Shown one piece after another: positions 24,118 through 49,001 of a stretch of 55,741 bases of DNA. How positions within the stretch are numbered: position 1 is the stretch's first letter; every line of letters begins with the position of its first letter. The stretch spans positions 1-55,741 of IMG/VR virus record IMGVR_UViG_3300012919_000008, one strand, 5' to 3'. Source of the stretch: a virus (taxonomy: Duplodnaviria > Caudoviricetes). The notes under the pieces are model-generated. The model ran no database searches. It was not told the DNA's origin and saw nothing but the letters and a program-made list of their open reading frames with translations. The position numbers were made by a program, and so were the translations under genes.

Positions 24118-24354
24118 CTATTGCCTATACGTGATAGTATATTCTTGTAGTCCATCTATGTGCTCCTTATATGGGTCTAGATCTATGCTTGCAATTACGG
24201 CATCAATATTACTGTGCCAATATCTTAAAAATCTATTTATACGTGGATATTCTGGTATTACATCTACAGTGCCCCACGTAAATTCCTGCACTAAGTTGTT
24301 ATAGTCTGGCAAAAAGTAATAAACACGTAGTAATACTGGTTCTCTAACTAGCAT
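24118..24354 (-). CDS. Usg-like protein
   Basis: YYFLPDY..LVQEFTW...D..PEYPR..RFL.YW...ID matches the alphaproteobacterial Usg pattern, recognised by eye. Confidence 0.55.
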   Translation of the reverse strand: MLVREPVLLRVYYFLPDYNNLVQEFTWGTVDVIPEYPRINRFLRYWHSNIDAVIASIDLDPYKEHIDGLQEYTITYRQ

Positions 24355-24360
24355 ATAACT

Positions 24361-24522
24361 CTATTTAGAGTTCCACAGATCAAATAAACTCTTTACTTTC
24401 TCTTTTAGTACGACAATATCACCATGCATTTTAGCTAACACGATAATTAAAGTTACTATGCCCAGCAATATAGGCCAAGCACGGATAAATAAATCTATAA
24501 TAGAGATTGATTCAGGATTCAT
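24361..24522 (-). CDS. 53-aa single-TM protein; absent from the ORF track
   Basis: MNPESISIIDLFIRAWPILLGIVTLIIVLAKMHGD...; GAGG RBS. Confidence 0.55.
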   Translation of the reverse strand: MNPESISIIDLFIRAWPILLGIVTLIIVLAKMHGDIVVLKEKVKSLFDLWNSK

Positions 24523-24628
24523 TTAATTGCCTCACTATAAGTGTACACTTAAGTGTTATATCTAAGTATTTTTTAGTTTTATTTAAGGGAGTTTTTAGTG
24601 TATCACTTTAAGTGATCTATTATATGTA

Positions 24629-24661
24629 CATAGTTATACTCATTAGATCAACCCCTGTCAA
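24629..24661 (-). promoter_or_regulatory. Sigma70-like promoter heading the leftward arm
   Basis: TTGACA-17 nt-TATAAC-TATG. Confidence 0.7.
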
Positions 24662-25063
24662 CTAAAAAATTAAAAAATACTAAAAATAATTAAAAATATC
24701 GTAAATGTGTGTCTAATATGCAACATATTATTGTCAGTTGCTACTGTGGTTAACACTTAATTTTCCTAATCTGTGTGTTTGTACAAGCATATATACGTAC
24801 CAACGGGGGGTGGACCATGCCCTGACTGCCATTTTTTTAAAAATAATCTTTTTTTTGAGACATTTTTTAAGATCCGCAGAAAATAAGGCTTTTTTGTCTC
24901 GACTCAAGATTTAAAAGGCAACTGATATGGCATCAGTTCCTTTCATTTGATCTTTTCGATGGTGGGGTTTTTGGGTGGTGCTCTTTTGACAACAGACAAC
25001 TATGAAATGAAGCACCCTATCCCCTCACTTCAAATGGTCCACAAAATACCACCCCATCAAATC

Positions 25064-25080
25064 GGTGGGACTGTCCCACC
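25064..25080. promoter_or_regulatory. Palindrome copy 1, GGTGGGACTGTCCCACC
   Basis: Perfect 8-1-8 inverted repeat that recurs four times. Confidence 0.8.
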
Positions 25081-25087
25081 TTAAATT

Positions 25088-25110
25088 ATTTCGGCTGCAG
25101 TAGCTTAAAC
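25088..25110 (+). repeat. 23-bp direct repeat, copy 1 (ATTTCGGCTGCAGTAGCTTAAAC)
   Basis: Identical to 26018-26040. Confidence 0.9.
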
Positions 25111-25113
25111 CAT

Positions 25114-25142
25114 TTGACTGTATTTGATCACTTCTATATAAG
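25114..25142 (+). promoter_or_regulatory. Early sigma70-like promoter
   Basis: TTGACT-17 nt-TATAAG. Confidence 0.65.
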
Positions 25143-25196
25143 AGTAGTTATTCCACATCGTTTGAATGTGGTTTTTAACCAATGAGGTAAACAAAA

Positions 25197-25799
25197 ATGA
25201 AAAAGTTAGATACTACAAAAGAATTAGAATTCGTTGCAGATATTGCTCAGGAACTATTACCGAAAATTAAAAAAGGTAATCAAGAATTCAGGAAAGAAGT
25301 ATTTTCGGGTCGAACATCTGAAATGCTCACTTCTATGAATAAGCTACTTGATGTAGATGATAAGTTTCAGTGGGGTGATACTTTCAAAGGTTACACAAAG
25401 GAACAAAGGAAAGCCTATGTGTTTGTAGCTAAGAATTTGCACCATGCAATCAAGTTAAACAAAGAAAATGGTTATCATAAGCTAATCACTAAAAAAGATG
25501 GTAGCACCGAAAATAAGAAAGTTGATTTCTACAGTGGTACATCTATGGAGGGTTTAGAAAAAATGCTCCGTAGGTACATTGCTTATCTTGATGGTCCATC
25601 TGCTAAAAGCTACCAATCATTTGAAAAGCTAATTGATCACGTAGTTGAACACGTTCAAACGCAAGGTTACAACTACAAAGAATTAGTTGAATGTTGCGCT
25701 CAATTGTTAGGCTTTGAAATTGATAGTGATAGTTCTGATATTAACGTCTTAGAATTAGATCCTCTAACAATCGAAAAGAAATCCAAAAAAGTAGCTTAA
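25197..25799 (+). CDS. Orphan 200-aa protein in its own transcription unit
   Basis: GAGGT RBS, own promoter and terminator; no recognisable family. Confidence 0.75.
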   Translation: MKKLDTTKELEFVADIAQELLPKIKKGNQEFRKEVFSGRTSEMLTSMNKLLDVDDKFQWGDTFKGYTKEQRKAYVFVAKNLHHAIKLNKENGYHKLITKKDGSTENKKVDFYSGTSMEGLEKMLRRYIAYLDGPSAKSYQSFEKLIDHVVEHVQTQGYNYKELVECCAQLLGFEIDSDSSDINVLELDPLTIEKKSKKVA

Positions 25800-25820
25800 T
25801 ACTTTAAACCTTTTTAACTT

Positions 25821-25852
25821 AGGGTGATAGCTTCGGTTATCACCCTTTTTTT
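25821..25852 (+). terminator. Intrinsic terminator
   Basis: AGGGTGATAGC-TTCG-GTTATCACCCT followed by a T run. Confidence 0.9.
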
Positions 25853-25962
25853 ATGCCTAGATTTAGAACCCATTTAAACGCTCATACAGCACCCTTAAAT
25901 CGTTTCTAGTACTATCCTACCTTAAACACCTTAAACGCTCTTACAGCGCATTCTCGACAGTC

Positions 25963-25992
25963 TTGACTGTATCCCATGCTCTAAGCTACTAT
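25963..25992 (+). promoter_or_regulatory. Early sigma70-like promoter
   Basis: TTGACT-18 nt-TACTAT; shares TTGACTGTAT with the 25114 promoter. Confidence 0.6.
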
Positions 25993-26017
25993 AGGTATAG
26001 TTAGAAATCACTTATTG

Positions 26018-26040
26018 ATTTCGGCTGCAGTAGCTTAAAC
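26018..26040 (+). repeat. 23-bp direct repeat, copy 2
   Basis: Identical to 25088-25110. Confidence 0.9.
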
Positions 26041-26049
26041 GATCACTTA

Positions 26050-26066
26050 GGTGGGACTGTCCCACC
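26050..26066. promoter_or_regulatory. Palindrome copy 2, GGTGGGACTGTCCCACC
   Basis: Identical to copy 1. Confidence 0.8.
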
Positions 26067-26090
26067 GATTACTTGAAAGGTTTTTACTCT

Positions 26091-26309
26091 ATGAAATACA
26101 AAAGAATTGTAGAAAAATCGAGTGACAAATTGTCGAGTTGGTATCCAAAACAAGTTGGACGAGTTGTTGACGACATGTCGCTAATGACGAACCGACAATT
26201 TGACGAGATGTTTAGACGAGTATCGCATAAACCTAGACGAGTTGACACGAAGCTAAATGCAATGCTATCCATAATCAGACAACAACAAGGAAGGACGAGT
26301 ACTAAATGA
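26091..26309 (+). CDS. Hypothetical early protein
   Basis: ATG at 26091 after AAGG; ATGA coupling to the next gene. Confidence 0.55.
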   Translation: MKYKRIVEKSSDKLSSWYPKQVGRVVDDMSLMTNRQFDEMFRRVSHKPRRVDTKLNAMLSIIRQQQGRTSTK

Positions 26310-26608
26310 CAAAACACGTTTTGCTTCACGATGACTACGTGAAACGCAAGAAACAGTTTGAGGAAAAAGGTAGAACTGCTTACCTTGCAAGTGACGTCGA
26401 AAATTTTGCCAGCCTTACAGCAGAGTTTATGGCGTTTGTCGATACATACATTGACGGCATAACCGACAAGTATTTGAAACGAGATCGTCTGTTTTGTAAG
26501 ACGCTTGTCACACAAAGACAAATCATTAAAGACTACGAAAGTTTTATTGATGACATAAAGCAAAGGGTGGACGATAACTTTGCCGAAGTAGCGAGAGGAG
26601 GTGACTAA
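26306..26608 (+). CDS. Hypothetical early protein
   Basis: 100 aa with AGGA RBS. Confidence 0.6.
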   Translation: MTKHVLLHDDYVKRKKQFEEKGRTAYLASDVENFASLTAEFMAFVDTYIDGITDKYLKRDRLFCKTLVTQRQIIKDYESFIDDIKQRVDDNFAEVARGGD

Positions 26609-26767
26609 ATGACAATGGACATAGTGACGAGAGGTGACGACGAGAAGATTGCGTACCTCGAAATGGAGAACTTAGCAGTGATGCGTGACAATCGTATCCT
26701 TGCCAATCTGATACTCAAACAAGAGAAGTTAATTGAAAGGTTAAAGAGAAAGGCGATAGAGATATGA
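26609..26767 (+). CDS. 52-aa hypothetical protein; absent from the ORF track
   Basis: GGAGGT RBS; MTMDIVTRGDDEKIAYLEMENL... Confidence 0.55.
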   Translation: MTMDIVTRGDDEKIAYLEMENLAVMRDNRILANLILKQEKLIERLKRKAIEI

Positions 26768-26922
26768 ATCAAGTTGATAAATTCTTTAATGACTTTGTTA
26801 TGCTTCACAATGCCATGCAAGCCAAGACAGAGCAGGACACTAGACGCACAAAGTTAGAGGAGATCGACAGGACATGGGCAGCCATACAAGCCATTGACAC
26901 AAGTGGGACTGTCCCACGATGA
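26764..26922 (+). CDS. 52-aa hypothetical protein; absent from the ORF track
   Basis: ATGA overlap; MNQVDKFFNDFVMLHNAMQ... Confidence 0.45.
   Translation: MNQVDKFFNDFVMLHNAMQAKTEQDTRRTKLEEIDRTWAAIQAIDTSGTVPR
26903..26917. promoter_or_regulatory. Palindrome copy 3, GTGGGACTGTCCCAC
   Basis: 15-bp core lying between TTGACA (26894) and a TTGACG-18-TATGCT promoter (26929-26958). Confidence 0.75.
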
Positions 26923-27009
26923 CAGCACTTGACGAACTGACGATTGTCGCACTATGCTTTGTCATAGTAGTGATTGGTTTATATTGTTTTCAACGAGGAG
27001 ATTTATGAC

Positions 27010-27735
27010 ATGCCATATCGAGGTAAATTAATTGCTAGTGGTGCAGATGCCAAGACCATCAAAGGTAATGGAGAGAAGTATGAGACAGCCATTATGTACC
27101 TCATGCCTGACGACATCCTGTGTCCTTGGTCAAAACGTGCCAAGTGCAAAGACCCATGCCTAGTGTCAGCAGGTCGAGGTAAATTTAGCAATGTCGAACA
27201 GGCACGTATACGTAAGTCTAACTTATATCACAATGACAGGGACACGTTCATGGACATGTTGCAAACAGACATCCACAAGTTTCGTAGCTACTGTCACAAA
27301 CGAGACATACAACCTTGCGTCAGGCCTAATGGCACTAGTGACATACCCTTTGAGCGAGTGCCTGTTGGCAACAAGACCATCATGGAAGAGTTCGATGACG
27401 TAATCTTTTATGACTACACCAAGACGGTTAATCGTGTGTACAAAGATCCGTATCCACTGACGCTATCCTACAGTGGTGCTGACCCTGTGTATCAGTCCAA
27501 GGTAGAGAAAGCTATGCGGGAATTACCAGACGTAAACGTGGCAGTTGTGTTCAGGACACAGCAGATGTTGCATGACGCAATGGACTATGGTTTTATGGGC
27601 AGAGAGGTAATACATGCAGACAAAGACGATATGAGATTCCTAGATCCCAAGGGTACAATAGCAGGACTAGTAGCCAAGGGATCAGCTAAGACAGACACAT
27701 CAGGTTTTGTAGTTGACTACGACAGGAGGAACTAA
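27010..27735 (+). CDS. GP88-like phage protein with a Cys triad, possible radical-SAM-like Fe-S enzyme
   Basis: CPWSKRAKCKDPC (CX7CX3C), RPNGTSD, FYDYTK; ATG at 27010 follows GAGGAG. Confidence 0.55.
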   Translation: MPYRGKLIASGADAKTIKGNGEKYETAIMYLMPDDILCPWSKRAKCKDPCLVSAGRGKFSNVEQARIRKSNLYHNDRDTFMDMLQTDIHKFRSYCHKRDIQPCVRPNGTSDIPFERVPVGNKTIMEEFDDVIFYDYTKTVNRVYKDPYPLTLSYSGADPVYQSKVEKAMRELPDVNVAVVFRTQQMLHDAMDYGFMGREVIHADKDDMRFLDPKGTIAGLVAKGSAKTDTSGFVVDYDRRN

Positions 27736-27915
27736 ATGGTAAAAATACCTGACGATATGGATGTACCACGTATCCGTAGAGATACGAATAACCTTGATAA
27801 TGTAATGTGGTTAGTACGCAATTTGTCTGTGAGAAACAGTCAACACCCTGAGTTTAAAAACGTATTCTCACAGGTGTTAAAGCTAAAAGCGAAACATTGG
27901 GAGAAACTAAGATGA
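27736..27915 (+). CDS. 59-aa hypothetical protein; absent from the ORF track
   Basis: AGGAGG RBS; MVKIPDDMDVPRIRRD... Confidence 0.55.
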   Translation: MVKIPDDMDVPRIRRDTNNLDNVMWLVRNLSVRNSQHPEFKNVFSQVLKLKAKHWEKLR

Positions 27916-28847
27916 TCAACACAGTATTTTCAGCATGTGATGGTGGCTCTATGCTACAGGAAGCTATGGTTAGGGCAGGTGTATTATCACCTGTCTACAG
28001 ATACTATGCCAGTGAGATAGACAAGTATCCTATCAAAGTGACACAGGCTAATTGGCCTGATACCCAACAGGTAGGTGACATACACAATGTAGACCTACAC
28101 ACATTCAACGGTGATCCTATTGACTTCATGGCAGGTGGGTTTCCTTGCCCCTCATTTTCAGTGGCAGGTAAAGGCAAGGGCTTTGACGATCCTAGAGGAC
28201 AAATCTTTTGGGAGATCGTGCGTTTGAAAGAGGCACTCAAACCCAAGTGGTTTCTGTTTGAGAACGTGCCTATGAAGCAGGAGTATCAGGACGTTATCAA
28301 CAAGCATCTAGGTGTGGAACCTATCGAGATTAATAGTAGCCTTGTGTCGGCACAGAACAGACGTAGACTATACTGGACTAACATACCACAGTCAGGTCTA
28401 CCAGAGGACAAAGGCATCATGCTCAAGGACATACTAGAGGATGGTTATGTGGACAGAGATAAGTCCCATTGCCTAGATGCTAACTACTGGAAGGGTGGTA
28501 ATCTTAAGACATACTTTGAGAAGCACAGACGACAGCTAGTATTTAGTAAGGATCAGATGTGTCACGTTGGTGACGCTGACCTCAACGGACATGGCTATCT
28601 TAAACGTGTCTACCATTCGTCAGGGAAAGCTCCAACCCTGACAAGTAACGGTGGTGGCAATCGTGAGCCAAAGGTTTATGTCGAGCCAATGAAGTATCGT
28701 AAGCTGACACCTCTGGAATGTGAGAGATTGCAGACACTGCCAGACAACTACACCAACCATGTATCTAACACTCAAAGATACAAAGTATGCGGTAATGGAT
28801 TTACCGTAGACGTTATTGCCCACATACTGAAAGGACTAAAGATATGA
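27912..28847 (+). CDS. DNA (cytosine-5) methyltransferase
   Basis: Catalytic GGFPC, ENV, QNRRRLYW, RLQT, GNG motifs. Confidence 0.9.
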   Translation: MINTVFSACDGGSMLQEAMVRAGVLSPVYRYYASEIDKYPIKVTQANWPDTQQVGDIHNVDLHTFNGDPIDFMAGGFPCPSFSVAGKGKGFDDPRGQIFWEIVRLKEALKPKWFLFENVPMKQEYQDVINKHLGVEPIEINSSLVSAQNRRRLYWTNIPQSGLPEDKGIMLKDILEDGYVDRDKSHCLDANYWKGGNLKTYFEKHRRQLVFSKDQMCHVGDADLNGHGYLKRVYHSSGKAPTLTSNGGGNREPKVYVEPMKYRKLTPLECERLQTLPDNYTNHVSNTQRYKVCGNGFTVDVIAHILKGLKI

Positions 28848-29191
28848 GTACAGACTACAGAGTTGAAATGCAGCAGGAAGAAAAGCTAAGAGAAATAATG
28901 GAGAAACAGGTTGATGCACTAGTTAAGGTGAGTATTCCAGAAGAGGATGCTTACGAAATGTTAGAGGCTTGGCATCTAAAAAATGGATATCCATTTATAA
29001 AAACTGATCTTAAAGTGTATGATGTAGTTAAGCTATGGGAGGAGCAGACAGGCAGGACTATACCCACAGATATTGTAGACGCTATGAAGTTTCTGCAATG
29101 GCAGGGACGCAATGGTGACACACGTAAGTTCAAGGACAGGAGCATAATACAAGTGCTCAGATATTTTATTAAATACTATGAGGAGAAGTAA
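28844..29191 (+). CDS. Hypothetical protein
   Basis: 115 aa with ATGA coupling. Confidence 0.6.
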   Translation: MSTDYRVEMQQEEKLREIMEKQVDALVKVSIPEEDAYEMLEAWHLKNGYPFIKTDLKVYDVVKLWEEQTGRTIPTDIVDAMKFLQWQGRNGDTRKFKDRSIIQVLRYFIKYYEEK

Positions 29192-29192
29192 T

Positions 29193-29411
29193 ATGGACCA
29201 TGATTTGTTTCAAGAGTGGTTAGACAATTGTCCTGCGGAGATCAAGTCATATAATGTACATGGAGATATAGTAGTGGCAACATTCCATGTGCCATCTGAG
29301 CATGACCCCAATGCCTATGATCATGGCAGAGAGATGCAGGACGAACCTGAACAGTATGAGAGTGATCACAGTGTAAGGTCATACATTTATGGAGATGGGA
29401 GAATGCAATGA
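29193..29411 (+). CDS. Hypothetical acidic protein
   Basis: GAGGAG RBS before ATG at 29193. Confidence 0.55.
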   Translation: MDHDLFQEWLDNCPAEIKSYNVHGDIVVATFHVPSEHDPNAYDHGREMQDEPEQYESDHSVRSYIYGDGRMQ

Positions 29412-29611
29412 GTATCGACAGTGTATATCACATATTGGTGCAGGACTTCATAGGCAGGGACATATATGTTCCTTGGAGAACTACACCACACGAAAAACAC
29501 GTGGAAGAACACCACTATCCATCTGCTAAAAAGGCAGACAACCTAGTACCCACCAGACCAGCACCACCGATAGACACTAATCGTGGCACTAACTTGGACA
29601 TACTGGCATAA
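29408..29611 (+). CDS. Hypothetical protein
   Basis: 67 aa with ATGA coupling. Confidence 0.5.
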   Translation: MSIDSVYHILVQDFIGRDIYVPWRTTPHEKHVEEHHYPSAKKADNLVPTRPAPPIDTNRGTNLDILA

Positions 29612-29629
29612 TCATAAAGGAGAAAACAA

Positions 29630-29905
29630 ATGCCTAGAACTAACTTTGGAAAAACAAGAACCCATGACAACCCATATGCTATCTACTCAGATGGTAGAGG
29701 TTGGGAGTGGAGAGTGTTGAAGACCTACAAACATTCATCTGCTGAAAAGAATGACGGCTTTGCTAGATGGTATGTGTCAGCCACATCTCCCCTGATGCAC
29801 AAAGGATCTTACGAGTATGGTGACACATATTGCAGAGACATAAAGGATAACTTCTTAGTGAAGTTAGTATCTGCTGACGAAGAGTGGATGAAAGAGTATG
29901 GTTGA
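29630..29905 (+). CDS. Hypothetical protein
   Basis: AAGGAG RBS; aromatic-rich (GWEWRVLKTY, YEYGDTY). Confidence 0.65.
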   Translation: MPRTNFGKTRTHDNPYAIYSDGRGWEWRVLKTYKHSSAEKNDGFARWYVSATSPLMHKGSYEYGDTYCRDIKDNFLVKLVSADEEWMKEYG

Positions 29906-29922
29906 GGTGGGACAGTCCCACC
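29906..29922. promoter_or_regulatory. Palindrome copy 4, GGTGGGACAGTCCCACC
   Basis: Central base is A; lies 13 bp upstream of TTGACA at 29936. Confidence 0.8.
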
Positions 29923-29996
29923 ATTTAGGTTATACTTGACACGACATACTGGTATAATGTACTGTATATCCAACTTAACCAAAAGGAGAGTCTGTT

Positions 29997-30245
29997 ATGA
30001 CAACAGCAAACAAAATACAAAAGCAATTAGAACTACGTGGACGTATACTTAACAGGGACTTTATCTTTAGGAAGCGAGTTAAGAAAAGGAGATGGGAGTT
30101 TGGTAAAGAACTCAAAGAGTTTAAGTCTTATCAGTTTGGCAAGTACTCTATCTATCTTTCCAAACAACCTATCGTGTTCTGGAACATGCAAGGGCTAGTG
30201 TCCACAACTAAGCGTGACTATTCTGTGCAGCCCATACTTAGATAA
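29997..30245 (+). CDS. Basic hypothetical protein
   Basis: AAGGAG RBS. Confidence 0.6.
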   Translation: MTTANKIQKQLELRGRILNRDFIFRKRVKKRRWEFGKELKEFKSYQFGKYSIYLSKQPIVFWNMQGLVSTTKRDYSVQPILR

Positions 30246-30266
30246 CAGGACGAGAGGAGGTCTGTT

Positions 30267-30443
30267 GTGCGTATCAAACCAATCAATCCAGTTGCACGTG
30301 AGATGGCGTACAATAGACCTCGCACTCAAATTGTAAAACCCAAAAAGGGAAAGGGGTCATACAGCAGGAAGAGGAACAAACATAATGATGCAGTCACAGT
30401 TGACATTTCAAAAGATGCCAGCAAAAAAGGTGGCACTTACTAA
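30267..30443 (+). CDS. ArfA-like small basic protein (58 aa, GTG start); absent from the ORF track
   Basis: GAGGAGG RBS; MRIKPINPVAREMAYNRPRTQIVKPKKGKGSYSRKRNKH... contains the ArfA signature KKGKGSYxRK. Confidence 0.6.
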   Translation: MRIKPINPVAREMAYNRPRTQIVKPKKGKGSYSRKRNKHNDAVTVDISKDASKKGGTY

Positions 30444-30534
30444 ACCAAAGAGAGGTGCATGGAAAGTAGAAAGGCGTAAGCAACGTAAGTTTAAATACAA
30501 CCAAAGGAGCATGGAATATTATGGTAGACACTGA
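30385..30534 (+). CDS. 49-aa basic peptide; absent from the ORF track
   Basis: GAGGA RBS; MMQSQLTFQKMPAKKVALTKPKRGAWKVERRKQRKFKY... Confidence 0.4.
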   Translation: MMQSQLTFQKMPAKKVALTKPKRGAWKVERRKQRKFKYNQRSMEYYGRH

Positions 30535-30787
30535 CATAGAGGACTTACTAAATTGGTGGTACAACAAGCCTGTCAATTGGGCTGGCACGTACAAGGAAGA
30601 CAGTGATGGTGTAGTCACACTCACTCTGTTTAAAAGACCAGCAGCGCGTAGCAAAGAGGAGAGTATAGATGACCAGCTGCAACGTGCTAGAGGTAGAGCA
30701 CCCAAGCAGGAGTATGGTGGGTACGATGGGCCTGACCCCACTACACATGGGGATTGGCAACACAATGGTAGGTGTACAGATTTTTGA
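30521..30787 (+). CDS. DUF1674 / SDHAF4 (Sdh8)-like protein
   Basis: C-terminus EYGGYDGPDPTTHGDWQHNGRCTDF matches the family signature ExGGxxGPEPTRYGDWExxGRCxDF. Confidence 0.7.
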   Translation: MVDTDIEDLLNWWYNKPVNWAGTYKEDSDGVVTLTLFKRPAARSKEESIDDQLQRARGRAPKQEYGGYDGPDPTTHGDWQHNGRCTDF

Positions 30788-30799
30788 GGGGGTGTATTT

Positions 30800-31237
30800 A
30801 TGTTAAGTGAAACCATACTTGCAGTAGGTGCTACGATCACGTGTCTTGCTCAGAACATTTACTTTGAGGCACGTGATCAACCTACCATAGGACAACGTGC
30901 AGTGGCAGAGGTGGTGTTGAACCGTGTGCATGATCCACGTTGGCCTGATACTGTGTGCGAGGTGATACGTGAAGGACCAACGTATAGTTGGAAGCAGGAC
31001 TACCCAATCAAACACAGGTGTCAGTTCAGTTGGTATTGTGATGGCCTATCAGATAAACCAAAGGACCAACGTGCGTGGTCAAAGGCTATTGCCATAGCAG
31101 AGGACGTATTCTTTTCATATGGCTTATCAATTAACACGGTGGACGGTGCTACCTTTTACCATGCCACTAACGTAGACCCGGAGTGGAGAAACGTAGAGTA
31201 CATAGTAACAATAGAAGATCATATATTTTATAGATAG
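30800..31237 (+). CDS. Cell wall hydrolase (SleB/Hydrolase_2 family)
   Basis: CLAQNIYFEARDQ...AVAEVVLNRV...CQFSW...HIFY. Confidence 0.88.
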   Translation: MLSETILAVGATITCLAQNIYFEARDQPTIGQRAVAEVVLNRVHDPRWPDTVCEVIREGPTYSWKQDYPIKHRCQFSWYCDGLSDKPKDQRAWSKAIAIAEDVFFSYGLSINTVDGATFYHATNVDPEWRNVEYIVTIEDHIFYR

Positions 31238-31246
31238 GATAATGAC

Positions 31247-31741
31247 ATGAATATATTTTTTATAGACAAAAATCCAATCAAAGCAGCTCGACAACTATGT
31301 GACAAGCATGTGGTCAAGATGGTATTGGAAACTGCTCAGATGTGTAGCACTGCATTACATGAGTGGTGCTTTGAGGATGAACCTATATTGAAAGAGATAT
31401 ATAAACCTGCATACAAAAATCATCCCATGACTGTATGGGTACGAGAGAATGATGCCAACATGACATGGGCTGTAGCACATGGTCTTGAGATAGGCAGAGA
31501 GTACACACGTAGATATGGCAAGCACCATAAGAGCACAGCTATAATGAAGAAGATAGCTGCATATATGTTTCACGATAACTTTGACGAGGACTTCAGGTTA
31601 CACACCACACCACCACAGTGTATGCCAGACCAGTTTAAGTGTGACGATTATGTAGAGGCGTATCGCAACTACTATCGCACAGATAAGGCACACATATTAC
31701 AATGGACAAACACACCACAACCTACATGGATTGCAGCTTGA
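31247..31741 (+). CDS. Pyrimidine dimer DNA glycosylase / endonuclease V-like protein
   Basis: MNIF...DKHVVKMVLETAQM...NHP...EYTRRYGKHH...AYRNYY. Confidence 0.65.
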   Translation: MNIFFIDKNPIKAARQLCDKHVVKMVLETAQMCSTALHEWCFEDEPILKEIYKPAYKNHPMTVWVRENDANMTWAVAHGLEIGREYTRRYGKHHKSTAIMKKIAAYMFHDNFDEDFRLHTTPPQCMPDQFKCDDYVEAYRNYYRTDKAHILQWTNTPQPTWIAA

Positions 31742-31986
31742 CATGGAATGGGAAATAATATATTTAATCATGATGATTGTTGCGACTAACATCATGGGCT
31801 TTGGAGACTAGTATGATAGACAATTACTCTAGATTTTATAGACTGCCTAAGTATATACAGAAAGAGATAAAGTCTAAATATGATAAACCTTTTACTGTAG
31901 AGGCCATAGAATACGGCGAAAATTTATTTGAAGAACAAGTAGAAGAAGACATACAAACATTTCAAAACTATTAAAGGAGACTAACT

Positions 31987-32211
31987 ATGCCACAATACAA
32001 AGTACACCTATTGGTAGATCTTCTTGATTGTGAAGAACATGAGTTAGATAAGTTAATGTATGTGGTAAAAATATCACACGATATGGTAGAGCAACTGGAG
32101 TTGCACACGCCAGATAGTTTAGTAGCGTATGCGATAAATGACGCTGATCAAAATTATCCTGACGCTGATATATACTTGAATCATATAGAGGAAATACATT
32201 CAATACATTGA
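31987..32211 (+). CDS. Hypothetical acidic protein
   Basis: AAGGAG RBS. Confidence 0.55.
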   Translation: MPQYKVHLLVDLLDCEEHELDKLMYVVKISHDMVEQLELHTPDSLVAYAINDADQNYPDADIYLNHIEEIHSIH

Positions 32212-32225
32212 GAAAGGAGACCAAT

Positions 32226-32573
32226 ATGACCTATTCAGTCAGATTTATTATAGGTTCATTAGCATTGGTAGTGGTGCTGATGGTGTTAACATTTGTAGCA
32301 AATGCACAGCCAGTGGCATGTGCACCTATGAAAGAAACAATGCGTAAACTTTTACACGAACACAAGGAACTGCTTATATTCAGAGGCATATCTGCACGTG
32401 GACACATAACTATAATCCACTTAAATGAAGATACTGGCAATTGGACTGCATCAGTGATAAGACCAACTGACCCCACACTAATGTGTGGCGTAGATGCAGG
32501 AACAACAGGAGAGCTTATAGAAACTAATGATCAGGCAAACACCGAAAACTTTTGGTGCACTGACTGTGGCTAA
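32226..32573 (+). CDS. Putative exported protein
   Basis: AAGGAG RBS; hydrophobic signal-like N-terminus ending ANA. Confidence 0.55.
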   Translation: MTYSVRFIIGSLALVVVLMVLTFVANAQPVACAPMKETMRKLLHEHKELLIFRGISARGHITIIHLNEDTGNWTASVIRPTDPTLMCGVDAGTTGELIETNDQANTENFWCTDCG

Positions 32574-32775
32574 CAAAAAGATGTACTCTGATTTAGTTAC
32601 AGAGTTAGTATGGAAAGCTGCACATGCCGATCCCACTTACGACATACACAGAGCTAAAGTAGTATCTGATCTGTGTAAAGTGCCTGTAGCCACACTAATG
32701 AAAGTAGTAAGACACGCTCAAAGAACACCTAAAGCAGTTAGTTGGGATGTAATCAGTAACAAAATTATACAATAG
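32527..32775 (+). CDS. Hypothetical protein
   Basis: ORF in the operon; start uncertain. Confidence 0.45.
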   Translation: MIRQTPKTFGALTVANKKMYSDLVTELVWKAAHADPTYDIHRAKVVSDLCKVPVATLMKVVRHAQRTPKAVSWDVISNKIIQ

Positions 32776-32785
32776 GAGACATATT

Positions 32786-33253
32786 ATGCGTAAACCTATG
32801 ACAAAAGAACAGCGAGAAGCATCAGCTAAACGTCTTGAAAAAGCACGTGCAGCCAAACGTAAACCTGCCAATTTAAGTGTGCATGAGAGTGTACGTAACC
32901 TAGACAGTAGTCACCCTGTGAGCGTGGACAAAGTTAAGTCTTGGATTAAACACAACCAAGAGATGCTATCTTCTCTAAAAATGTCTTGTAGAAGAGATAA
33001 GGTTATACAGAAAAAACTTAACAATGAAATGAATATACTAGAAATGTATATACATAACATGAAGTTTTATTTACGCACTGGTTTGTGGCTAGACAGTGTG
33101 TACGGTAAAGACAGAGAGCACAGTGTAACTAGAAAGTGTACTGTTATGGCTTACGATAAGAATGGTAACGTTAAAAGATCAGTAGGTGTGCATTACCCTG
33201 ACATAGGACTGTACACAAAAGAGATGCAACAACAAGAAATGGAAGCGACATGA
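32786..33253 (+). CDS. Hypothetical protein
   Basis: AGGAG RBS; 155 aa. Confidence 0.65.
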   Translation: MRKPMTKEQREASAKRLEKARAAKRKPANLSVHESVRNLDSSHPVSVDKVKSWIKHNQEMLSSLKMSCRRDKVIQKKLNNEMNILEMYIHNMKFYLRTGLWLDSVYGKDREHSVTRKCTVMAYDKNGNVKRSVGVHYPDIGLYTKEMQQQEMEAT

Positions 33254-34131
33254 GGCCAATATCTGTGAAACGATTAGTCAACCTTTACGTGCAATCACCT
33301 GAGTTTAATCGCTTACGTGATAAAACTAAAGTAGACTATACAAGGTTCTTAAAAGTGTTGACAGATAGATTTGGAGAGAAGACAGCCAACAGTGTGACAG
33401 GCAAGGACGCAAAGATAGCCTACGAAGAGTGGGTTAAGCGTGGCATACAGTTAGCCAATCATGTAGCTGTTGTGTCTGGCAGGGCATACAGGTATGGGTT
33501 AGACATGGAGTATGTCAAGAACAATCCCTTTGCTTTGGTGCGTAAGCTAACACCTGCATCACGTAATGTAGTGTGGACAGAGGATCAGGTACGTGAGTTT
33601 CTTAACGTAGCCTATGGTGACTTTGTTTACCGTAACGTGGGACTGATAGTGCAGATGGCATACGAGTGGTGTCAACGTGTAGGTGACATGCGTATGCTTG
33701 AGTGGCAGTGCATAGACTTTGATAACAACCGTCTGAACCTGATACAATCTAAGAGAGGTGCAGTGGTGCACTTACCTATATCTGAATCTCTGTTGGATAT
33801 GTTAAAAGAACAGAGAGATGACTTTGACTTTCAGAAGTATGTCGTTCCCATGCCGACTCCTAGAGATGGAGAGTACATACCATTCTCTATGGAGAGGTTA
33901 TCTAAGATAGGCAGGAGGATTATGCGACAAGCAGGGCTACCTGAAGAGCTTAGACTTATGGACTTACGTAGAACTGGCACAACTGAGATGGTAGAGGCAG
34001 GTGTACCACTACCACAGATCATGTCTGTGACAGGACACGCTAATCCACAGTCAGTTAAACCCTACATAAAGAACACTTTCCTTAGTGCTAACAGTGCGTT
34101 GACTGCACGACAACAGTTTAAGGAAGAGTGA
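33250..34131 (+). CDS. int: Tyrosine integrase/recombinase
   Basis: CQRVGD (R), QSKR (K), MDLRRT, VTGH, terminal Y; upstream of primase as in HMO-2011-type phages. Confidence 0.85.
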   Translation: MRPISVKRLVNLYVQSPEFNRLRDKTKVDYTRFLKVLTDRFGEKTANSVTGKDAKIAYEEWVKRGIQLANHVAVVSGRAYRYGLDMEYVKNNPFALVRKLTPASRNVVWTEDQVREFLNVAYGDFVYRNVGLIVQMAYEWCQRVGDMRMLEWQCIDFDNNRLNLIQSKRGAVVHLPISESLLDMLKEQRDDFDFQKYVVPMPTPRDGEYIPFSMERLSKIGRRIMRQAGLPEELRLMDLRRTGTTEMVEAGVPLPQIMSVTGHANPQSVKPYIKNTFLSANSALTARQQFKEE

Positions 34132-45041: not shown

Positions 45042-48000
45042 CTAACGCATTTTCTTCATTATTTGTTTTTGTCTCTTTTCTATTACTAGTTCTGATTCTT
45101 CTGTTATTTGCTTTTTTATTATAGACTGCTTTTGTTTTATAAGATCAACTATATATCTAAGGTCAGCTACATTAGTAAGATCTGCTCGTTTTCCTGTATC
45201 TCTATAAAATTCAAGCTGTGCATCCTGTTTATCTGCTTTAGATCCTGTTTTCTTATAAGCATTATAGGCAGCTATATATCTAACTTCCTCATTGACAGGG
45301 TTCTCTAATCTTTGTTTTGTTAAATTAGACACAACGCCCTTTTTTACTTTTATTAGTCGTCCTATGAAAGTACGCATCTTATCCCTTACATACTCTTTCT
45401 TTCCAAAAGCTCTCTCCCCCTCTTTTGTTATGTAACCTGTTCGTAATCTAATAATCTCTCGCTCTTTTTTTGGCAGAGAAAGCCACTCCTTCTCATATTC
45501 TTTTTCCATAGCTAATGCGTTTTCATATATGCCAGACATATAATTTTTTAACAGTGCTTTTTGTGCTCTAGCAACAGATGGGGTGTTACTAAATTTACTA
45601 ATTTTAAAATCATATATACCATATTTCCTAAAAAATCTACCCATAGGTGTTGTCTTTTTAATGTTCAACCCAAAAGTAACATTTAATCCTTCAGTTAACT
45701 TTGTCTTAGTATCCTCACCAAATAGACTCACTCGCATTCTAGGATTAGTCATGGTTGGCACAGTTGGATCTGCTTTCATAGCTTCGTAAAGATCAAAAGG
45801 ATCAGGGTATCTAGCCTTTAAATATCTCATTCGTTCTCTTTTAAAATTACTTATAGGCTCCCCATCACTATCTAATTCACCGGGAATTATATCATAACTA
45901 GTGTCTAGACTTCCTACAGGTCTATTACCAAAGGCTACGTCTGCTTGGTAAAACTGTTGAAAGTATTGACCAAAACTCATATAATAATTTGTAAATGCTT
46001 TTTCTAAAGCTACCATTTGATTAGGTGTTAGCTTTATATTTTCTGGATCTATATTTCTACCAGCTACTCCTTGAGTTATACCTACTATGTGCTCTACAAA
46101 GGGAGACACTGAACCCCAATAGTTTCGTCCTGCCTCTGCACCTGCTAAAATTTTAACTGCATTCTTGTACCCATCCCTATTTACTACAAAGTCTGCTAAA
46201 TCACCCTCAAACATTTCATATGCTATTCTAGATGCTAACGCTAAATCTGGAATAGGCGATAGTGGTCCTAAATTTACATCGTAATTTAACACTCTAGCTG
46301 TATCAGGTTCGTTGGGCAATTCCTCATCATTTAAAGAAATTATACCATAACCTGCACCTATGGCAGAAACACCAACTATATTTCTAGATATTCTCTCTCT
46401 GTCTTTTGCATTTAGTGGTGCTTTAAACGCTGCCTCAAAATCTACATTCATTATTTCATCTACTTCTTTTTTAATTTGGGCTTTTGTTTTTTTAGATGTA
46501 ACAGACTTAACTATTTTACTTGTTGTGGAAGTAGCACTACGAACACCACCAAATTCATAGTTAAGTAAGTAATACATTCTTTTAGTTGCAGGTATAGAAC
46601 TACCAAGCATGTATTGACCTATTAGTTCTGCTTTGTTAAATAAAAATCTAGGAAACGCAGTGGTAAATGCTGTTAGTCCATAGTTAACTAAAAAATTTGT
46701 AAACTGTCTAAATACTTTTATTTCTGGCTGTTTAGCATAGGTATCACTAAGACCTTTCATAGTGGCACGTTCAGCTAACTCTAAAAATCCCGGCTTACCT
46801 TCAGGAACTAGAGAAGGATCATTGTTTAATAGTTGTTGTATTTTACCCTCTCTTAAGGTTGTAAATAAATCTATACCATATTCTAACCTAACCTGTCTTT
46901 GTAAGTCAGCAAGAACAGATGCCCTACGTATGGTAAACTCTTGAAGCCTGTTTGGTATGTTAGCCCACTGTACTGAATCTTCAAAAACTTCAAAAACTTG
47001 ATCTACTCTTCTAGCAGTTTGAGCTAACATATTATTACCTAGTGGGATGTTACCTTTCTTTGCTTCCTGTATATCGCTAAATATTTCAAACATTCTATTG
47101 TATTTATCAAATAGCTGTGGTCTTTTGTATATATATTCTAGAGTATCTTTAGCATCTGCTTGATTACTAAATATCCATGCTGTTTGTTTTAAAGAATCTT
47201 TCCAACTGGTTGAACCGGGTAGAAGCTCTTTCATACCTAGCTTAAAACCCTTGTCAGCCGCAGTATACATTGCACCATCTAGAACATTACCTAAAACTTC
47301 CATAGGACTACGTGCTATTATATGTGCTTCCGCATTTCTAAATGCAGTTTTTAGTGCAGCAACAAGTATACCTCTACGAATACCTTCCACTCGTATTAAT
47401 AAATTACCATAAAAATTTATATTTTCTCTTAGTAGTTTATCTGCATTAAAATCTTTATCTGTTTGTGCGGCTTTGTTTCTGCCCACTATCGTTCCAAATT
47501 TTTGAAGTATTTTACCCGCCTGTGATGCAGTAGATGTTGCAGTTAATATAAACTCTTCAAAAGACAAACCATACTTTGACAGTGTGCTTAACAACTCTGG
47601 ATCAGATACTAAACGATTACCATCTTTATCAGTAGCTATTACTACCTCTGTAATTTGATCTAACAAATTACCTTTATCGCCTTTTTTCTTAGCCTTAAAG
47701 TTATCAGGAAATCTTTTTCTAAAGTCAGTAGCTAATGCAATTAAACCGTTTAGTTTATCAGGTTGTAGTAAAGGCTCAAATGCAGGTATGAAGTTAGGGT
47801 CTGCCTTATCTAATATACCAGCTTTTTTATCTGCAATCGCTTGACCTGAACTTTTTACTAGATCCATATCTATTTGTAGATTGCCTTTACTATCTACTTT
47901 ACTTATTTTTACACCTACCTGTTCTTCAAAACTTTTTATTAAATCATTTCGCACACCTACATTAGCTTCTGCAATCTTTCTATTTCGTGCTTCTATCTCG

Positions 48001-49001
48001 CTCATTACCTGACTTTCCATCTGCCTTGCTTCTCTTGCTGTCATCACAGATAGTTTTGTAGGATCTTCTCTAATAGCCTGTGCTTTTTCTGTGCCTCTAA
48101 TATCGACTACTTCATCTTTAAATTCTTTTTTAACAGGGTCGTAAGTTCGTATAGTAGTTTTAAAACCTGCATCCATATCTAATCCAACAAGACGTTCTTC
48201 ATCAGTTGCTGGTAACATTGGTCCAGCACTTTTGTCTGTCGGTTGAAATAACTCTACCTTTGTAGGCTTAGTATATGCTGGCATTGCCTTGGCTGCTAAA
48301 AGAGGCACACCTACTATAGGAAAATCTAGAGATTCAGATAACATAAGAAAATCTTTTACTATTTTTTGAGCAGTTTCTGCTGGACCCATTTTACCACCTG
48401 CTACACGATCCACTACAGATGCCTGTAGCAAGTCATAATAATTTGGATGCTTATCTCTTAGATATATCATGCCAGCTTCTATACCATCTGCCGTATATCC
48501 TATACCTTTAAAAAATCCATGTAGGAGGTTCATAGAGTTTCTAAATACCTTAGGTCCAACAACATTACCAAATGTTTTAAAGGCATTGTCCTCTGGTAAC
48601 TTATCTATCACTTCTTTTTGTATGCGGTCATCTCTAAACTCTTTTATAAACATACCGCTAATACCACCTACGGTGTATGGCTCTTCTTCTTTTTCAATTT
48701 TTTCTATAGGATCCATTATAGGTTTAAAACTTTTTGTAGCAGCACCTACAAAATCTACGTCACCTTTTCTCTCAATAGGAACCTCTTCACCGTATAAATT
48801 TACACGTGTTTTAGGCTCACCTATAGTAAAACCTAACTCTTCTGGCTGTTCATCAGATGCAGTAGGAATAGTGCTCACAGGTTCTTCTTTTGCTTGTACA
48901 GGTTGAGTTACAGACAACATGCGCTGACTTCTCATTGCATTCTCTCTTGCTGTTTCCATAGCACGTAGTTGTTGTTCCATCTGTTCTTCTGTTAATCGCA
49001 T
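45042..49001 (-). CDS. Large internal virion (ejection) protein
   Basis: 1319 aa, helical, last gene of the late arm as in T7-like phages; assigned by position. Confidence 0.55.
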   Translation of the reverse strand: MRLTEEQMEQQLRAMETARENAMRSQRMLSVTQPVQAKEEPVSTIPTASDEQPEELGFTIGEPKTRVNLYGEEVPIERKGDVDFVGAATKSFKPIMDPIEKIEKEEEPYTVGGISGMFIKEFRDDRIQKEVIDKLPEDNAFKTFGNVVGPKVFRNSMNLLHGFFKGIGYTADGIEAGMIYLRDKHPNYYDLLQASVVDRVAGGKMGPAETAQKIVKDFLMLSESLDFPIVGVPLLAAKAMPAYTKPTKVELFQPTDKSAGPMLPATDEERLVGLDMDAGFKTTIRTYDPVKKEFKDEVVDIRGTEKAQAIREDPTKLSVMTAREARQMESQVMSEIEARNRKIAEANVGVRNDLIKSFEEQVGVKISKVDSKGNLQIDMDLVKSSGQAIADKKAGILDKADPNFIPAFEPLLQPDKLNGLIALATDFRKRFPDNFKAKKKGDKGNLLDQITEVVIATDKDGNRLVSDPELLSTLSKYGLSFEEFILTATSTASQAGKILQKFGTIVGRNKAAQTDKDFNADKLLRENINFYGNLLIRVEGIRRGILVAALKTAFRNAEAHIIARSPMEVLGNVLDGAMYTAADKGFKLGMKELLPGSTSWKDSLKQTAWIFSNQADAKDTLEYIYKRPQLFDKYNRMFEIFSDIQEAKKGNIPLGNNMLAQTARRVDQVFEVFEDSVQWANIPNRLQEFTIRRASVLADLQRQVRLEYGIDLFTTLREGKIQQLLNNDPSLVPEGKPGFLELAERATMKGLSDTYAKQPEIKVFRQFTNFLVNYGLTAFTTAFPRFLFNKAELIGQYMLGSSIPATKRMYYLLNYEFGGVRSATSTTSKIVKSVTSKKTKAQIKKEVDEIMNVDFEAAFKAPLNAKDRERISRNIVGVSAIGAGYGIISLNDEELPNEPDTARVLNYDVNLGPLSPIPDLALASRIAYEMFEGDLADFVVNRDGYKNAVKILAGAEAGRNYWGSVSPFVEHIVGITQGVAGRNIDPENIKLTPNQMVALEKAFTNYYMSFGQYFQQFYQADVAFGNRPVGSLDTSYDIIPGELDSDGEPISNFKRERMRYLKARYPDPFDLYEAMKADPTVPTMTNPRMRVSLFGEDTKTKLTEGLNVTFGLNIKKTTPMGRFFRKYGIYDFKISKFSNTPSVARAQKALLKNYMSGIYENALAMEKEYEKEWLSLPKKEREIIRLRTGYITKEGERAFGKKEYVRDKMRTFIGRLIKVKKGVVSNLTKQRLENPVNEEVRYIAAYNAYKKTGSKADKQDAQLEFYRDTGKRADLTNVADLRYIVDLIKQKQSIIKKQITEESELVIEKRQKQIMKKMR

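Follow-up and report, generated by a model that had tools for sequence, protein, structure and literature searches.

A palindrome of the early arm of HMO-2011-type phages co-varies with the first early gene and is probably part of a gene-control switch

The subject of this analysis is a GC-rich palindrome that recurs in the early arm of the IMG/VR virus record IMGVR_UViG_3300012919_000008. This record (referred to below as the window, that is, the whole stretch of 55,741 bp analysed) is the genome of a complete HMO-2011-type marine podophage. The palindrome is a real element: it is confined to the early arm, is found family-wide, occurs in a single allelic form in each genome, is coupled to promoters and co-varies with the first-gene module of the early arm. 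Taken together, the palindrome and the first early gene are probably an undescribed gene-control switch. We give an even chance to the explanation in which a dimeric regulator, encoded by the phage in the first-gene module, uses the palindromes as its operators.

Palindromes of the window and their surroundings

The 15-bp core GTGGGAC-W-GTCCCAC occurs exactly four times in the window, always within the first 5 kb of the early arm, while 100 dinucleotide-preserving shuffles yielded no palindrome match. This exact scan confirmed the four palindromes that an earlier note on this DNA had placed in the early arm. The exact 17-mer GGTGGGAC-W-GTCCCACC is present at positions 25064-25080 (copy 1, GGTGGGACTGTCCCACC), 26050-26066 (copy 2) and 29906-29922 (copy 4). 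Copy 3 consists of the 15-bp core GTGGGACTGTCCCAC (26903-26917); if read as a 17-mer (26902-26918), it deviates at two positions, which are the outermost ones. The centre base is T in copies 1, 2 and 3 and A in copy 4.

Copy 1 is part of the divergent control region, and the -35 box of the first-gene promoter follows 34 nt downstream. It occupies the same place in three close relatives, where its centre base is A. Copy 2 has the promoter-like site P2 upstream of it and is followed, after 24 nt, by the ATG of the second gene (26091). Copy 3 falls on the 3' end of an open reading frame (ORF) of 52 amino acids (aa) and overlaps the start of a 29-codon ORF; as read from the sequence, its centre T is a synonymous third-codon position. 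Copy 4 stands directly after the TGA (29903-29905) of a 91-aa ORF, and 13 nt separate its end from the TTGACA at 29936.

The TTGAC boxes listed in the same note (25114, 25963, 26894, 26929 and 29936) are all present. This pentamer occurs 16 times on the plus strand of region 24523-33249. Its distance is 95 nt for copy 2 and within 42 nt for the other three copies. The chance that each of four random positions has a TTGAC within 95 nt is 0.7%, and within 45 nt 0.07%. The promoter-like sites on the plus strand are as follows: P1, which belongs to the first gene (25114-25142; TTGACT, 17 nt, TATAAG) and whose TTGAC and TATATAA parts are invariant in four relatives; P2, upstream of copy 2 (25963-25992; TTGACT, 18 nt, TACTAT), which is invariant in three relatives; and P4, just downstream of copy 4 (29936-29958; TTGACA and then an extended -10, TGGTATAAT). 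The hexamer spacing of P4 is only 11 nt, so that its extended -10 is the likelier determinant. Copy 2 begins 58 nt downstream of the -10 box of P2. An intrinsic terminator, an 11-bp stem followed by T7, closes the first gene (25821-25846, plus strand).

Copies 1 and 2 can be folded into a hairpin with a 7-bp stem and a 3-nt loop (-12.1 kcal/mol); the earlier argument that a one-base centre rules out a hairpin is therefore wrong as it was stated. The palindromes lack the make-up of an intrinsic terminator, namely a GC-rich hairpin followed directly by a U-tract. Only copy 4 was picked up by a scan for terminator-like structures; it alone has a weak T-rich tail, and copies 1-3 have no U-tract. 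A plain terminator is disfavoured because the U-tract is missing at three of the four copies and because the sequence is strictly invariant.

The exact 17-mer gave 20 hits in IMG/VR, which by a rough estimate is close to the chance expectation for a collection of this size; only five of these loci, from three contigs, belong to relatives of the window phage. The others are unrelated phages, several of which (loci L005, L008, L009, L012, L021, L023 and L024, and L011, L013 and L014) have the 17-mer within longer perfect hairpins, TGGGGTGGGAC.GTCCCACCCCA and CGAGGGTGGGAC.GTCCCACCCTCG followed by a T-run; these longer hairpins look like ordinary terminators.

Conservation among the closest relatives

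Three IMG/VR contigs (L025, L026 and L007) share 90-95% nucleotide identity with the window and have every copy of the palindrome at the same place. In all four genomes the arms of the palindrome are invariant and the centre base flips between T and A; in variant copies the outermost pair is A-C, A-G or G-T. By contrast, the stem of the nearby terminator (25821-25846) shows compensatory changes among the window, L025 and L026. The palindrome is therefore constrained as a sequence and not merely as a structure.

The genes between the palindrome copies are replaced or deleted among these three relatives. The breakpoints between the window and L025 or L026 are at gene borders, 100-130 bp away from the palindromes, and no inversion or deletion between the sites was seen in the relatives. 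Searches for the loci of the 200-aa protein encoded by the first gene and of a GP88-like protein, as well as a search with the A3 profile, recovered only the two close relatives.

A 26-nt box (ATTTCGGCTGCAGTAGCTTAAAC.., repeat family D4) is situated on the plus strand beside palindrome 1 (25088-25113) and beside palindrome 2 (26018-26043). Both copies of the box are present in the window and in L025, both are missing from L026 and the first is missing from L007; therefore, gain or loss of the box looks concerted. A related core, CTGCAGTAGC, was observed upstream of the first gene in distant relatives (L083).

Palindrome alleles in HMO-2011-type phages

The window palindrome is one allele of a trait common to the closest relatives, which have four to seven copies of their own palindrome in the same early stretch and none elsewhere. 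The following alleles were recognised: A, GTCCAA-YR-TTGGAC; B, GTCCG-N4-CGGAC; C, the window allele, GTGGGAC-W-GTCCCAC; D, GTGGGTC-W-GACCCAC, which is allele C with a symmetric A:T to T:A swap; and E, GTCCTACCTAGGAC. The palindromes of the relatives are 14-15 bp long and present in 4-7 copies, compared to 15-17 bp and four copies in the window.

In the whole records of five relatives, type A is represented by 5, 7, 4, 7 and 7 copies, each set within one stretch of 3.3-4.5 kb; a reversed-pattern control gave zero matches in the same five records. Puniceispirillum phage HMO-2011 has five AGTCCG-ACAG/CTGT-CGGACT copies (allele B), all at the start of the early arm, and the palindrome of roseophage CRP-1 is GTCCAA-NN-TTGGAC (allele A). 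An integrase-anchored sweep covered 80 loci out of at least 585 relatives, and 12 of these 80 contain three to seven GTCC-N6-GGAC copies upstream of the integrase. No recurrent palindrome was found in the more distant members CRP-2, HTVC033P and MW202701 or in the first 10 kb of CRP-3. These palindrome-free phages are also devoid of the first-gene family and of the ArfA-like and small basic genes described below.

Alleles are not mixed: among 24 distinct contigs with at least two sites, none combines different alleles. The centres of 76 type-A sites were distributed as TG (45), CA (24), CG (4), CC (2) and GG (1). The centre is thus orientation-free and almost always a pyrimidine-purine step.

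Co-variation with the first-gene module

Co-variation of the motif with the 200-aa first gene, a possibility raised in the earlier note, was found throughout the related genomes. The window's first-gene family (A6), seen in 5 distinct contigs, is always paired with allele C or D, and the other family (A2), seen in 15 distinct genomes, with allele A or B, so that the allele follows the first-gene family in 20 of 20 distinct genomes without exception.

A methyltransferase-anchored sweep added the loci L178, L179, L182 and L196. The first two have four GTGGGTC-W-GACCCAC copies and a first gene that belongs to the rare family of the window (23% identity), while L182 and L196 possess seven and five type-A sites, respectively, and a first gene of the other family. 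L179 (allele D) and L182 (allele A) share 80-90% nucleotide identity outside two separate replaced segments, which together contain all palindromes and the first-gene module. Where orthologous starts consisting of promoter, palindrome, Shine-Dalgarno (SD) site and ArfA-like gene were compared, the flanks were conserved and only the palindrome differed (A, B or GTCCTACCTAGGAC).

Several other proteins were considered as readers of the palindrome and rejected. Copies of the tyrosine integrase (33250-34131) that are 81-88% identical to that of the window accompany allele A, and 87% identical copies of the C5-cytosine DNA methyltransferase (27912-28847, plus strand) are found with alleles A and D. 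No correspondence with the allele was seen for the ArfA-like protein, the small basic protein or the universal 63-aa leftward protein.

The palindrome could also be bound by a factor of the host, for instance a regulator, a nucleoid protein or an RNase, which the phage turns to its own use; alleles would then track the host lineage. We regard this as very unlikely. It would agree with the fact that isolates with different hosts have different alleles (HMO-2011 of SAR116, allele B; CRP-1 of Roseobacter RCA, allele A) and with the lack of a recognisable phage DNA-binding protein. However, L179 and L182 differ in allele together with a phage gene module, and CRP-2 and CRP-3 (first 10 kb) have similar hosts and no recurrent palindromes. 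Moreover, a scan of 185,579 species genomes with the exact allele-C motif gave 62 single-copy hits, in unrelated taxa, where about 69 are expected by chance, and no species genome contained several hits. These chance-level single hits do not support a host regulator box, which the earlier note had regarded as one of the outcomes that would undermine its proposal.

Arrangement of the sites

As a rule, the elements in this phage family are arranged as an early sigma70-like promoter, then the palindrome at a constant distance and then an SD site. The conserved sigma70-like promoter cassette of the family, CACTTGAWACTTTAGTGAAAGTG, is absent from the window. All 15 of the 15 unique copies of the cassette have the palindrome downstream, at a set distance of 26-27 or 33-39 nt, which by estimated start-site positions places the palindrome at about +10 to +34. 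The modal distance from the palindrome to the SD site and start is 19-20 nt, and sites are found 8-37 nt ahead of start codons, in site sets that are phylogenetically redundant. The other sites are between cistrons, upstream of the first-gene promoter or inside ORFs. The first site of each genome is upstream of the promoter of the first gene and, with no evident promoter of its own, appears to lie outside any obvious mRNA.

One of the in-ORF sites is located in a disordered linker of the relatives' first gene; the encoded residues are SNVG for type A and SDSG for type B. Ahead of this site stands a codon whose last letter is always G, although its amino acid varies (P, E, K, V, A). Of the 120 best family members, 116 contain SNVG, and in 115 it is the only motif of this kind. 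This points to nucleotide-level selection on the in-gene site. The C-terminal domains of the first gene are shuffled among genomes (alignment A2; L083 4483-5058 and relatives): L083 and L078 differ in this domain from L074 and L076, and L084 shares it with L056. The junction is near the in-gene linker palindrome, which suggests that domains may be exchanged there.

Among 16 early arms, 10.1% of 513 breakpoints were located within 15 nt of a palindrome centre, in comparison to 2.5% of random positions. Gene starts with a preceding palindrome (n = 32) had 2.28 breakpoints each versus 0.52 for the others (n = 255), and the corresponding values for sites inside ORFs were 0.42 versus 0.22; the genome pairs behind all of these counts are non-independent, and the conserved cassettes themselves seed short alignments. 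This enrichment at mosaic junctions of the relatives suggests that palindrome cassettes may also serve as exchange points, in the manner of the promoter/stem-loop cassettes (PeSLs) of T4-type phages.

A further, unlikely step would be to regard the palindrome as nothing but a passive PeSL-like cassette, in which the stem-loop attenuates read-through and offers short homology for the shuffling of early ORFan modules. Within-genome identity would then result from duplication and gene conversion, with no dedicated reader. The composite promoter/palindrome/SD cassettes with conserved flanks agree with this explanation, as does the breakpoint enrichment; in addition, the block of homology between L179 and L182 begins right after a palindrome. 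The 91-aa ORFan (29630-29905, plus strand) forms, with copy 4, an inserted module, and this also fits. The module is flanked by 16-nt direct repeats, GACATACTGGYATAAT (-10-like; family D13), at 29597-29612 and 29943-29958. In L033 and L041 the 91-aa ORF is missing, and a type-A palindrome precedes their homologue of gene 29997. The module looks like a cassette insertion between duplicated promoter pieces. Against the passive cassette, it is bounded by promoter repeats and not by palindromes. Breakpoints in the group of the window are at gene borders, as reported above, and a U-tract is missing at three of four window copies. Gene conversion hardly explains identical 14-bp cores within unrelated coding flanks, and a passive cassette leaves unexplained both the allele purity across separately exchanged modules and the link to the first gene. 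The breakpoint counts themselves are subject to the reservations given with them.

Candidate readers of the palindrome

The first early gene (25197-25799, plus strand), located between copies 1 and 2, encodes a protein of 200 aa that is the candidate reader. This protein had no PHROG match and no Pfam match above cut-off. Its family is rare, with only five relatives among 1.84 billion representatives; the other first-gene family comprises at least 2905 clusters, all unnamed or annotated as 'hypothetical protein' and without a Pfam domain.

The AlphaFold2 (AF2) model of the 200-aa protein (mean predicted local distance difference test score, pLDDT, 70.1) shows a helical N-domain (residues 1-131), a linker of low confidence and, at the C-terminus, a domain of two helices. 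In the model of the other family (mean pLDDT 76.7) the parts come in the same order. The 200-aa protein was modelled as a symmetric homodimer with an interface of residues 139-173 and an ipSAE of 0.50, compared to 0.00 for the best control; of 30 solved homodimers 20 come up to this value, and of 23 monomers one does. The dimer runs agreed in at least 52% of contacts, with a partner pLDDT of at least 73. According to these models, the 200-aa protein would be a homodimer joined via its C-terminal helices.

Sequence profiles searched against the PDB gave no hits for A2 and only designed helical repeats and weak chance-level rows for A6. In the ESM Atlas, only unnamed viral clusters were obtained at 0.91-0.92; Pfam-named rows scored 0.84-0.87 and are of lead level only. 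The top VIA match of the model from the relatives' first gene was the DNA-binding domain of KorB (1r71_A), a weak match (Z 4.8, rmsd 3.3, 87 aligned residues). For the window model, the same domain was at rank 38 (Z 3.4, rmsd 5.1, 92 aligned). We treat this structural match as a possible lead only.

The second early gene (26091-26309, plus strand) encodes a 72-aa protein and comes after the first gene in all allele types. Four residues, M1, S16, W17 and G23, are invariant in its alignment (A7) across types A, B, C and D. As this gene is conserved in position and swapped together with the first gene, its product remains an alternative candidate reader. The earlier view of the 200-aa protein as the best candidate binder stands in part: allele co-variation and the homodimer model speak for it, but no DNA-binding fold was detected and the 72-aa gene co-varies too.

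Interpretation

In the explanation that we favour, the four palindromes would be operator-like sites for a sequence-specific, two-fold symmetric phage factor. The source of this factor would be the first-gene module, most likely in the form of the 200-aa homodimer and alternatively as the 72-aa protein. The first gene, with its own promoter and terminator, would yield a product that binds double-stranded DNA upstream of its own promoter, downstream of or beside other early promoters, and between early cistrons. The factor may in this way set the level of early transcription, the likeliest outcome being a shut-off or an immunity-like repression by roadblock. Lineages would differ in which palindrome is paired with which first gene, much like heteroimmune lambdoid phages. 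The binding of a protein, double-stranded DNA instead of RNA as its target, repression instead of activation, and the identity of the reader are what we infer here from the observed properties of the element.

Duplex DNA is favoured as the target because of the orientation-free centre with its pyrimidine-purine step, the invariant arms and the lack of a G-U pattern. It is favoured also because the type-A hairpin is weak (5 bp), some sites are upstream of promoters and the geometry is operator-like.

A number of observations weigh against this explanation. The positions of the window copies relative to promoters are heterogeneous (about -78, +50 and -51 from start sites that are estimates based on consensus hexamers), and no copy overlaps a -35 or -10 box. 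Independent allele switches are few (A with B, A with C/D, and C with D), and since the 2-kb first-gene module was exchanged as a unit, the reader cannot be pinned to one gene. No DNA-binding domain was detected in either candidate reader by Pfam or PHROGs, and Foldseek searches of the PDB with both first-gene models returned nothing at E ≤ 1e-3. The best VIA Z scores (4.4 and 4.8) are in the noise range for helical models. Homology of the two first-gene families is not demonstrable (hhalign probability 0.3-0.7%, E 0.08-0.2). All palindromic changes keep both the pairing of an RNA and the symmetry of a DNA site and, consequently, do not discriminate between the two. Finally, 50 of 100 unique-context A, B and C sites are within 40 nt upstream of an SD site and start codon, and three of four type-D sites abut a stop codon; such a placement is predicted equally well by a role at the RNA level.

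An RNA-level operator is the main rival, although a rather improbable one. The palindrome would here be a short hairpin of early mRNA, read by an allele-specific protein of the first-gene module, and it would control translation, mRNA stability or processing, or antitermination, in the style of lambda N/boxB or of translational repressors. The SD-proximal sites fit this possibility, and so do copy 4 and the type-D sites directly after stop codons, the folding of copies 1 and 2 (-12.1 kcal/mol) and the allele changes that keep the arms complementary. The reader would be the first gene transcribed, like lambda N, and the ArfA-like gene accompanies the palindrome in all palindrome-bearing genomes and is lacking from the four palindrome-free members. 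However, the orientation of the loop is not conserved (TG/CA; T/A), which would alter a loop-specific contact, and the variation is not G-U-biased, with outermost mismatches of A-C, A-G and G-T. The type-A stem has only 5 bp, and the first site per genome is upstream of the first-gene promoter, with no evident promoter to transcribe it. Also, the arms are identical across copies, whereas the nearby structural hairpin compensates.

The operator network for an uncharacterised regulator that was proposed in the earlier note is thus sustained as regards the family-wide element, the early promoters and the co-variation, while its role in a lysis-lysogeny decision can only be conjectured. Within the operator explanation, three extensions appear possible though doubtful. 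Firstly, the palindromes and the first early gene may form a novel two-part system, composed of a fast-evolving dimeric regulator of no known fold and dispersed matching operators. Secondly, the system might tentatively be seen as an early shut-off or a lysis-lysogeny/immunity switch of the integrase-bearing subgroups. Thirdly, the alleles GTCCAA..TTGGAC, GTCCG....CGGAC, GTCCTA..TAGGAC, GTGGGAC.GTCCCAC and GTGGGTC.GACCCAC could perhaps define heteroimmunity-like groups.

The literature on the HMO-2011-type family that was covered, which did not include the 2013 description of HMO-2011, contains no account of promoters, palindromes, stem-loops or terminators. The present analysis provides a defined cis element, a conserved early-promoter cassette and a named candidate gene for HMO-2011-type phages. 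The allelic series is equivalent to a specificity-swap experiment already carried out by nature. A real pairing would account for the fast turnover of the first early genes and could show how integrase-bearing members establish immunity with no recognisable repressor.

Genome layout and neighbouring genes

HMO-2011-type phages infect SAR116, Roseobacter and SAR11 hosts and are among the commonest marine viruses. The window is a whole IMG/VR virus record with a completeness rating of 100% and a mean GC content of about 39%. Its large terminase shares 80% identity with that of HMO-2011 and 79% with that of CRP-1. The genes typical of the HMO-2011 family include those for a family-A DNA polymerase, a primase, a DnaB-like helicase, RNR, MazG and the tyrosine integrase, as well as podovirus structural genes. 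Both arms start from the divergent intergenic region 24522-25197. The leftward arm consists of structural and small genes and wraps round the end of the record; the rightward arm (plus strand) contains early and replication genes as far as 45040. The methyltransferase gene is between palindrome copies 3 and 4.

PHROGs were applied to 69 window ORFs (42 + 27) and Pfam to 44 ORFs, and no helix-turn-helix (HTH), cI or Cro family was found among them. This upholds the earlier remark that no cI/Cro-like repressor is recognisable although an integrase is present; the 139-aa HTH protein that the same note mentions was not located in the window. Scans of the whole window with Rfam and ARAGORN gave no match, and neither did a megablast comparison of a 5.8-kb region with phages.

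Two large minus-strand ORFs, of 1319 aa (45042-49001) and 1106 aa (51223-54543), had no match in PHROGs or Pfam; presumably, their products are virion-internal or ejection proteins typical of such podoviruses. The scanned window ORFs, these two included, yielded no RNA polymerase family, although divergent polymerases could escape such searches. They are relevant to one more explanation, in which the palindrome would act as a DNA hairpin: an N4-type promoter used by an as yet unrecognised RNA polymerase of the phage, a signal for replication or packaging, or the core site of a recombinase. We consider this highly improbable. The 7-bp stem and 3-nt loop are the size of N4 early-promoter hairpins, sites are found 8-37 nt ahead of start codons, the two virion ORFs are without a family and the integrase gene is 3.3 kb downstream of copy 4. 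Yet the orientation of the sites flips while all genes stay on one strand, and canonical sigma70-type promoters already precede the sites. As to recombination, integrases 81-88% identical to that of the window accompany a different allele, centres of 1-4 nt are too short for the overlap regions of tyrosine recombinases, and the relatives show no inversion or deletion between sites.

A 58-aa ORF (30267-30443, plus strand) has the ArfA C-terminal motif KKGKGSYSRK and matches Pfam ArfA (E 9.4e-7, 28.6 bits, cut-off 25.5). By sequence, it is a predicted phage-encoded homologue of the alternative ribosome-rescue factor. This gene is present in all 17 palindrome-bearing early arms examined and missing from four palindrome-free family members. 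Its 3' end is overlapped by a very basic 49-aa ORF (30385-30534, plus strand), which is kept in 16 of the 17 early arms via the motif KRDDWKR.RK and harbours a palindrome copy in one subgroup. Additionally, a small ORF at 44473-44688 matches RMF with 24.5 bits, under the cut-off of 27.9, and small ORFs at 24118-24354 and 30521-30787 are Usg-like (E 7e-15) and DUF1674 (E 8e-10), respectively. The RMF, Usg-like and DUF1674 matches may hint at a proteobacterial host and at interference with ribosomes.

Two noncoding features were noticed in the divergent control region. The first (24738-24800) is a block, GTGGTTAACACTTAATTTTCCTAATCTGTGTG..., that is kept across all allele types and shows up as a false 58-aa ORF. 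The second (24915-24950) is a conserved hairpin, GGCAACTGAT..ATCAGTT. Neither matches an Rfam family; they may belong to an origin, a genome end or a noncoding RNA.

Comparison with known systems

The PeSLs of T4-type phages are described as mobile promoter/stem-loop cassettes (PMC2839356; PMC4122927). They resemble the elements of the HMO-2011-type phages in the combination of an early sigma70-like promoter, a GC-rich stem-loop, an SD site and a start codon, and in being repeated within a region rich in small ORFans; a similar link to module insertion, deletion or replacement is suggested by the relatives of the window phage. In PeSLs the stem-loop precedes the promoter, whereas the palindrome here mostly comes after it. 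The palindrome is also short (14-17 bp), sequence-invariant per genome, allelic and linked to a gene family; it has no U-tract, and its in-gene copies are under nucleotide-level constraint.

With the N/nut boxB system of lambda, the palindromes share the presence of short hairpin-capable elements downstream of early promoters and a lineage-specific sequence that is matched to an early, first-transcribed phage gene. They differ in that the orientation of the centre or loop is not conserved (T/A; TG/CA), no arginine-rich N-like peptide or boxA was recognised, sites occur upstream of promoters too, and the candidate reader is a 200-aa protein modelled as a folded dimer.

KorB, a ParB-family protein of the IncP plasmid RK2, is a dimer that reads many identical dispersed OB palindromes at variable distances from promoters. 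It is composed of a DNA-binding domain, a linker and a C-terminal dimerisation domain. The dispersed palindromes of the phages, and the modelled C-terminal dimer (139-173) behind a linker that is of low confidence in both AF2 models, are similar. In the candidate reader, no ParB/Srx N-terminal domain and no Pfam ParB/KorB match was found even at E ≤ 1, and the structural match to the DNA-binding domain is weak. The phages differ from RK2 in that there are no partition genes and the setting is a phage early arm rather than a plasmid.

The lambda/434 immunity systems differ from the situation described here in several respects. No HTH, ribbon-helix-helix or other known DNA-binding family or fold was detected in these phages. 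The sites are spread over 5 kb, in ORFs and between cistrons, and are not clustered in a single divergent control region over -35/-10 boxes; in the relatives, the promoter cassette and the start of the palindrome are 26-39 nt apart. The candidate gene runs in the same direction as the early genes, and lysogeny is only putative for the window phage. At the same time, both have several perfect or near-perfect two-fold symmetric sites of 14-17 bp at early promoters, and the 8-1-8 (17 bp) and 4-6-4 (14 bp) geometries are those of lambda and 434 operators. The order of N-domain, linker and C-terminal dimerisation part recurs in the candidate reader, and an integrase is present. As in lambda and 434, phages that are otherwise alike differ jointly in their cis sites and in a phage gene.

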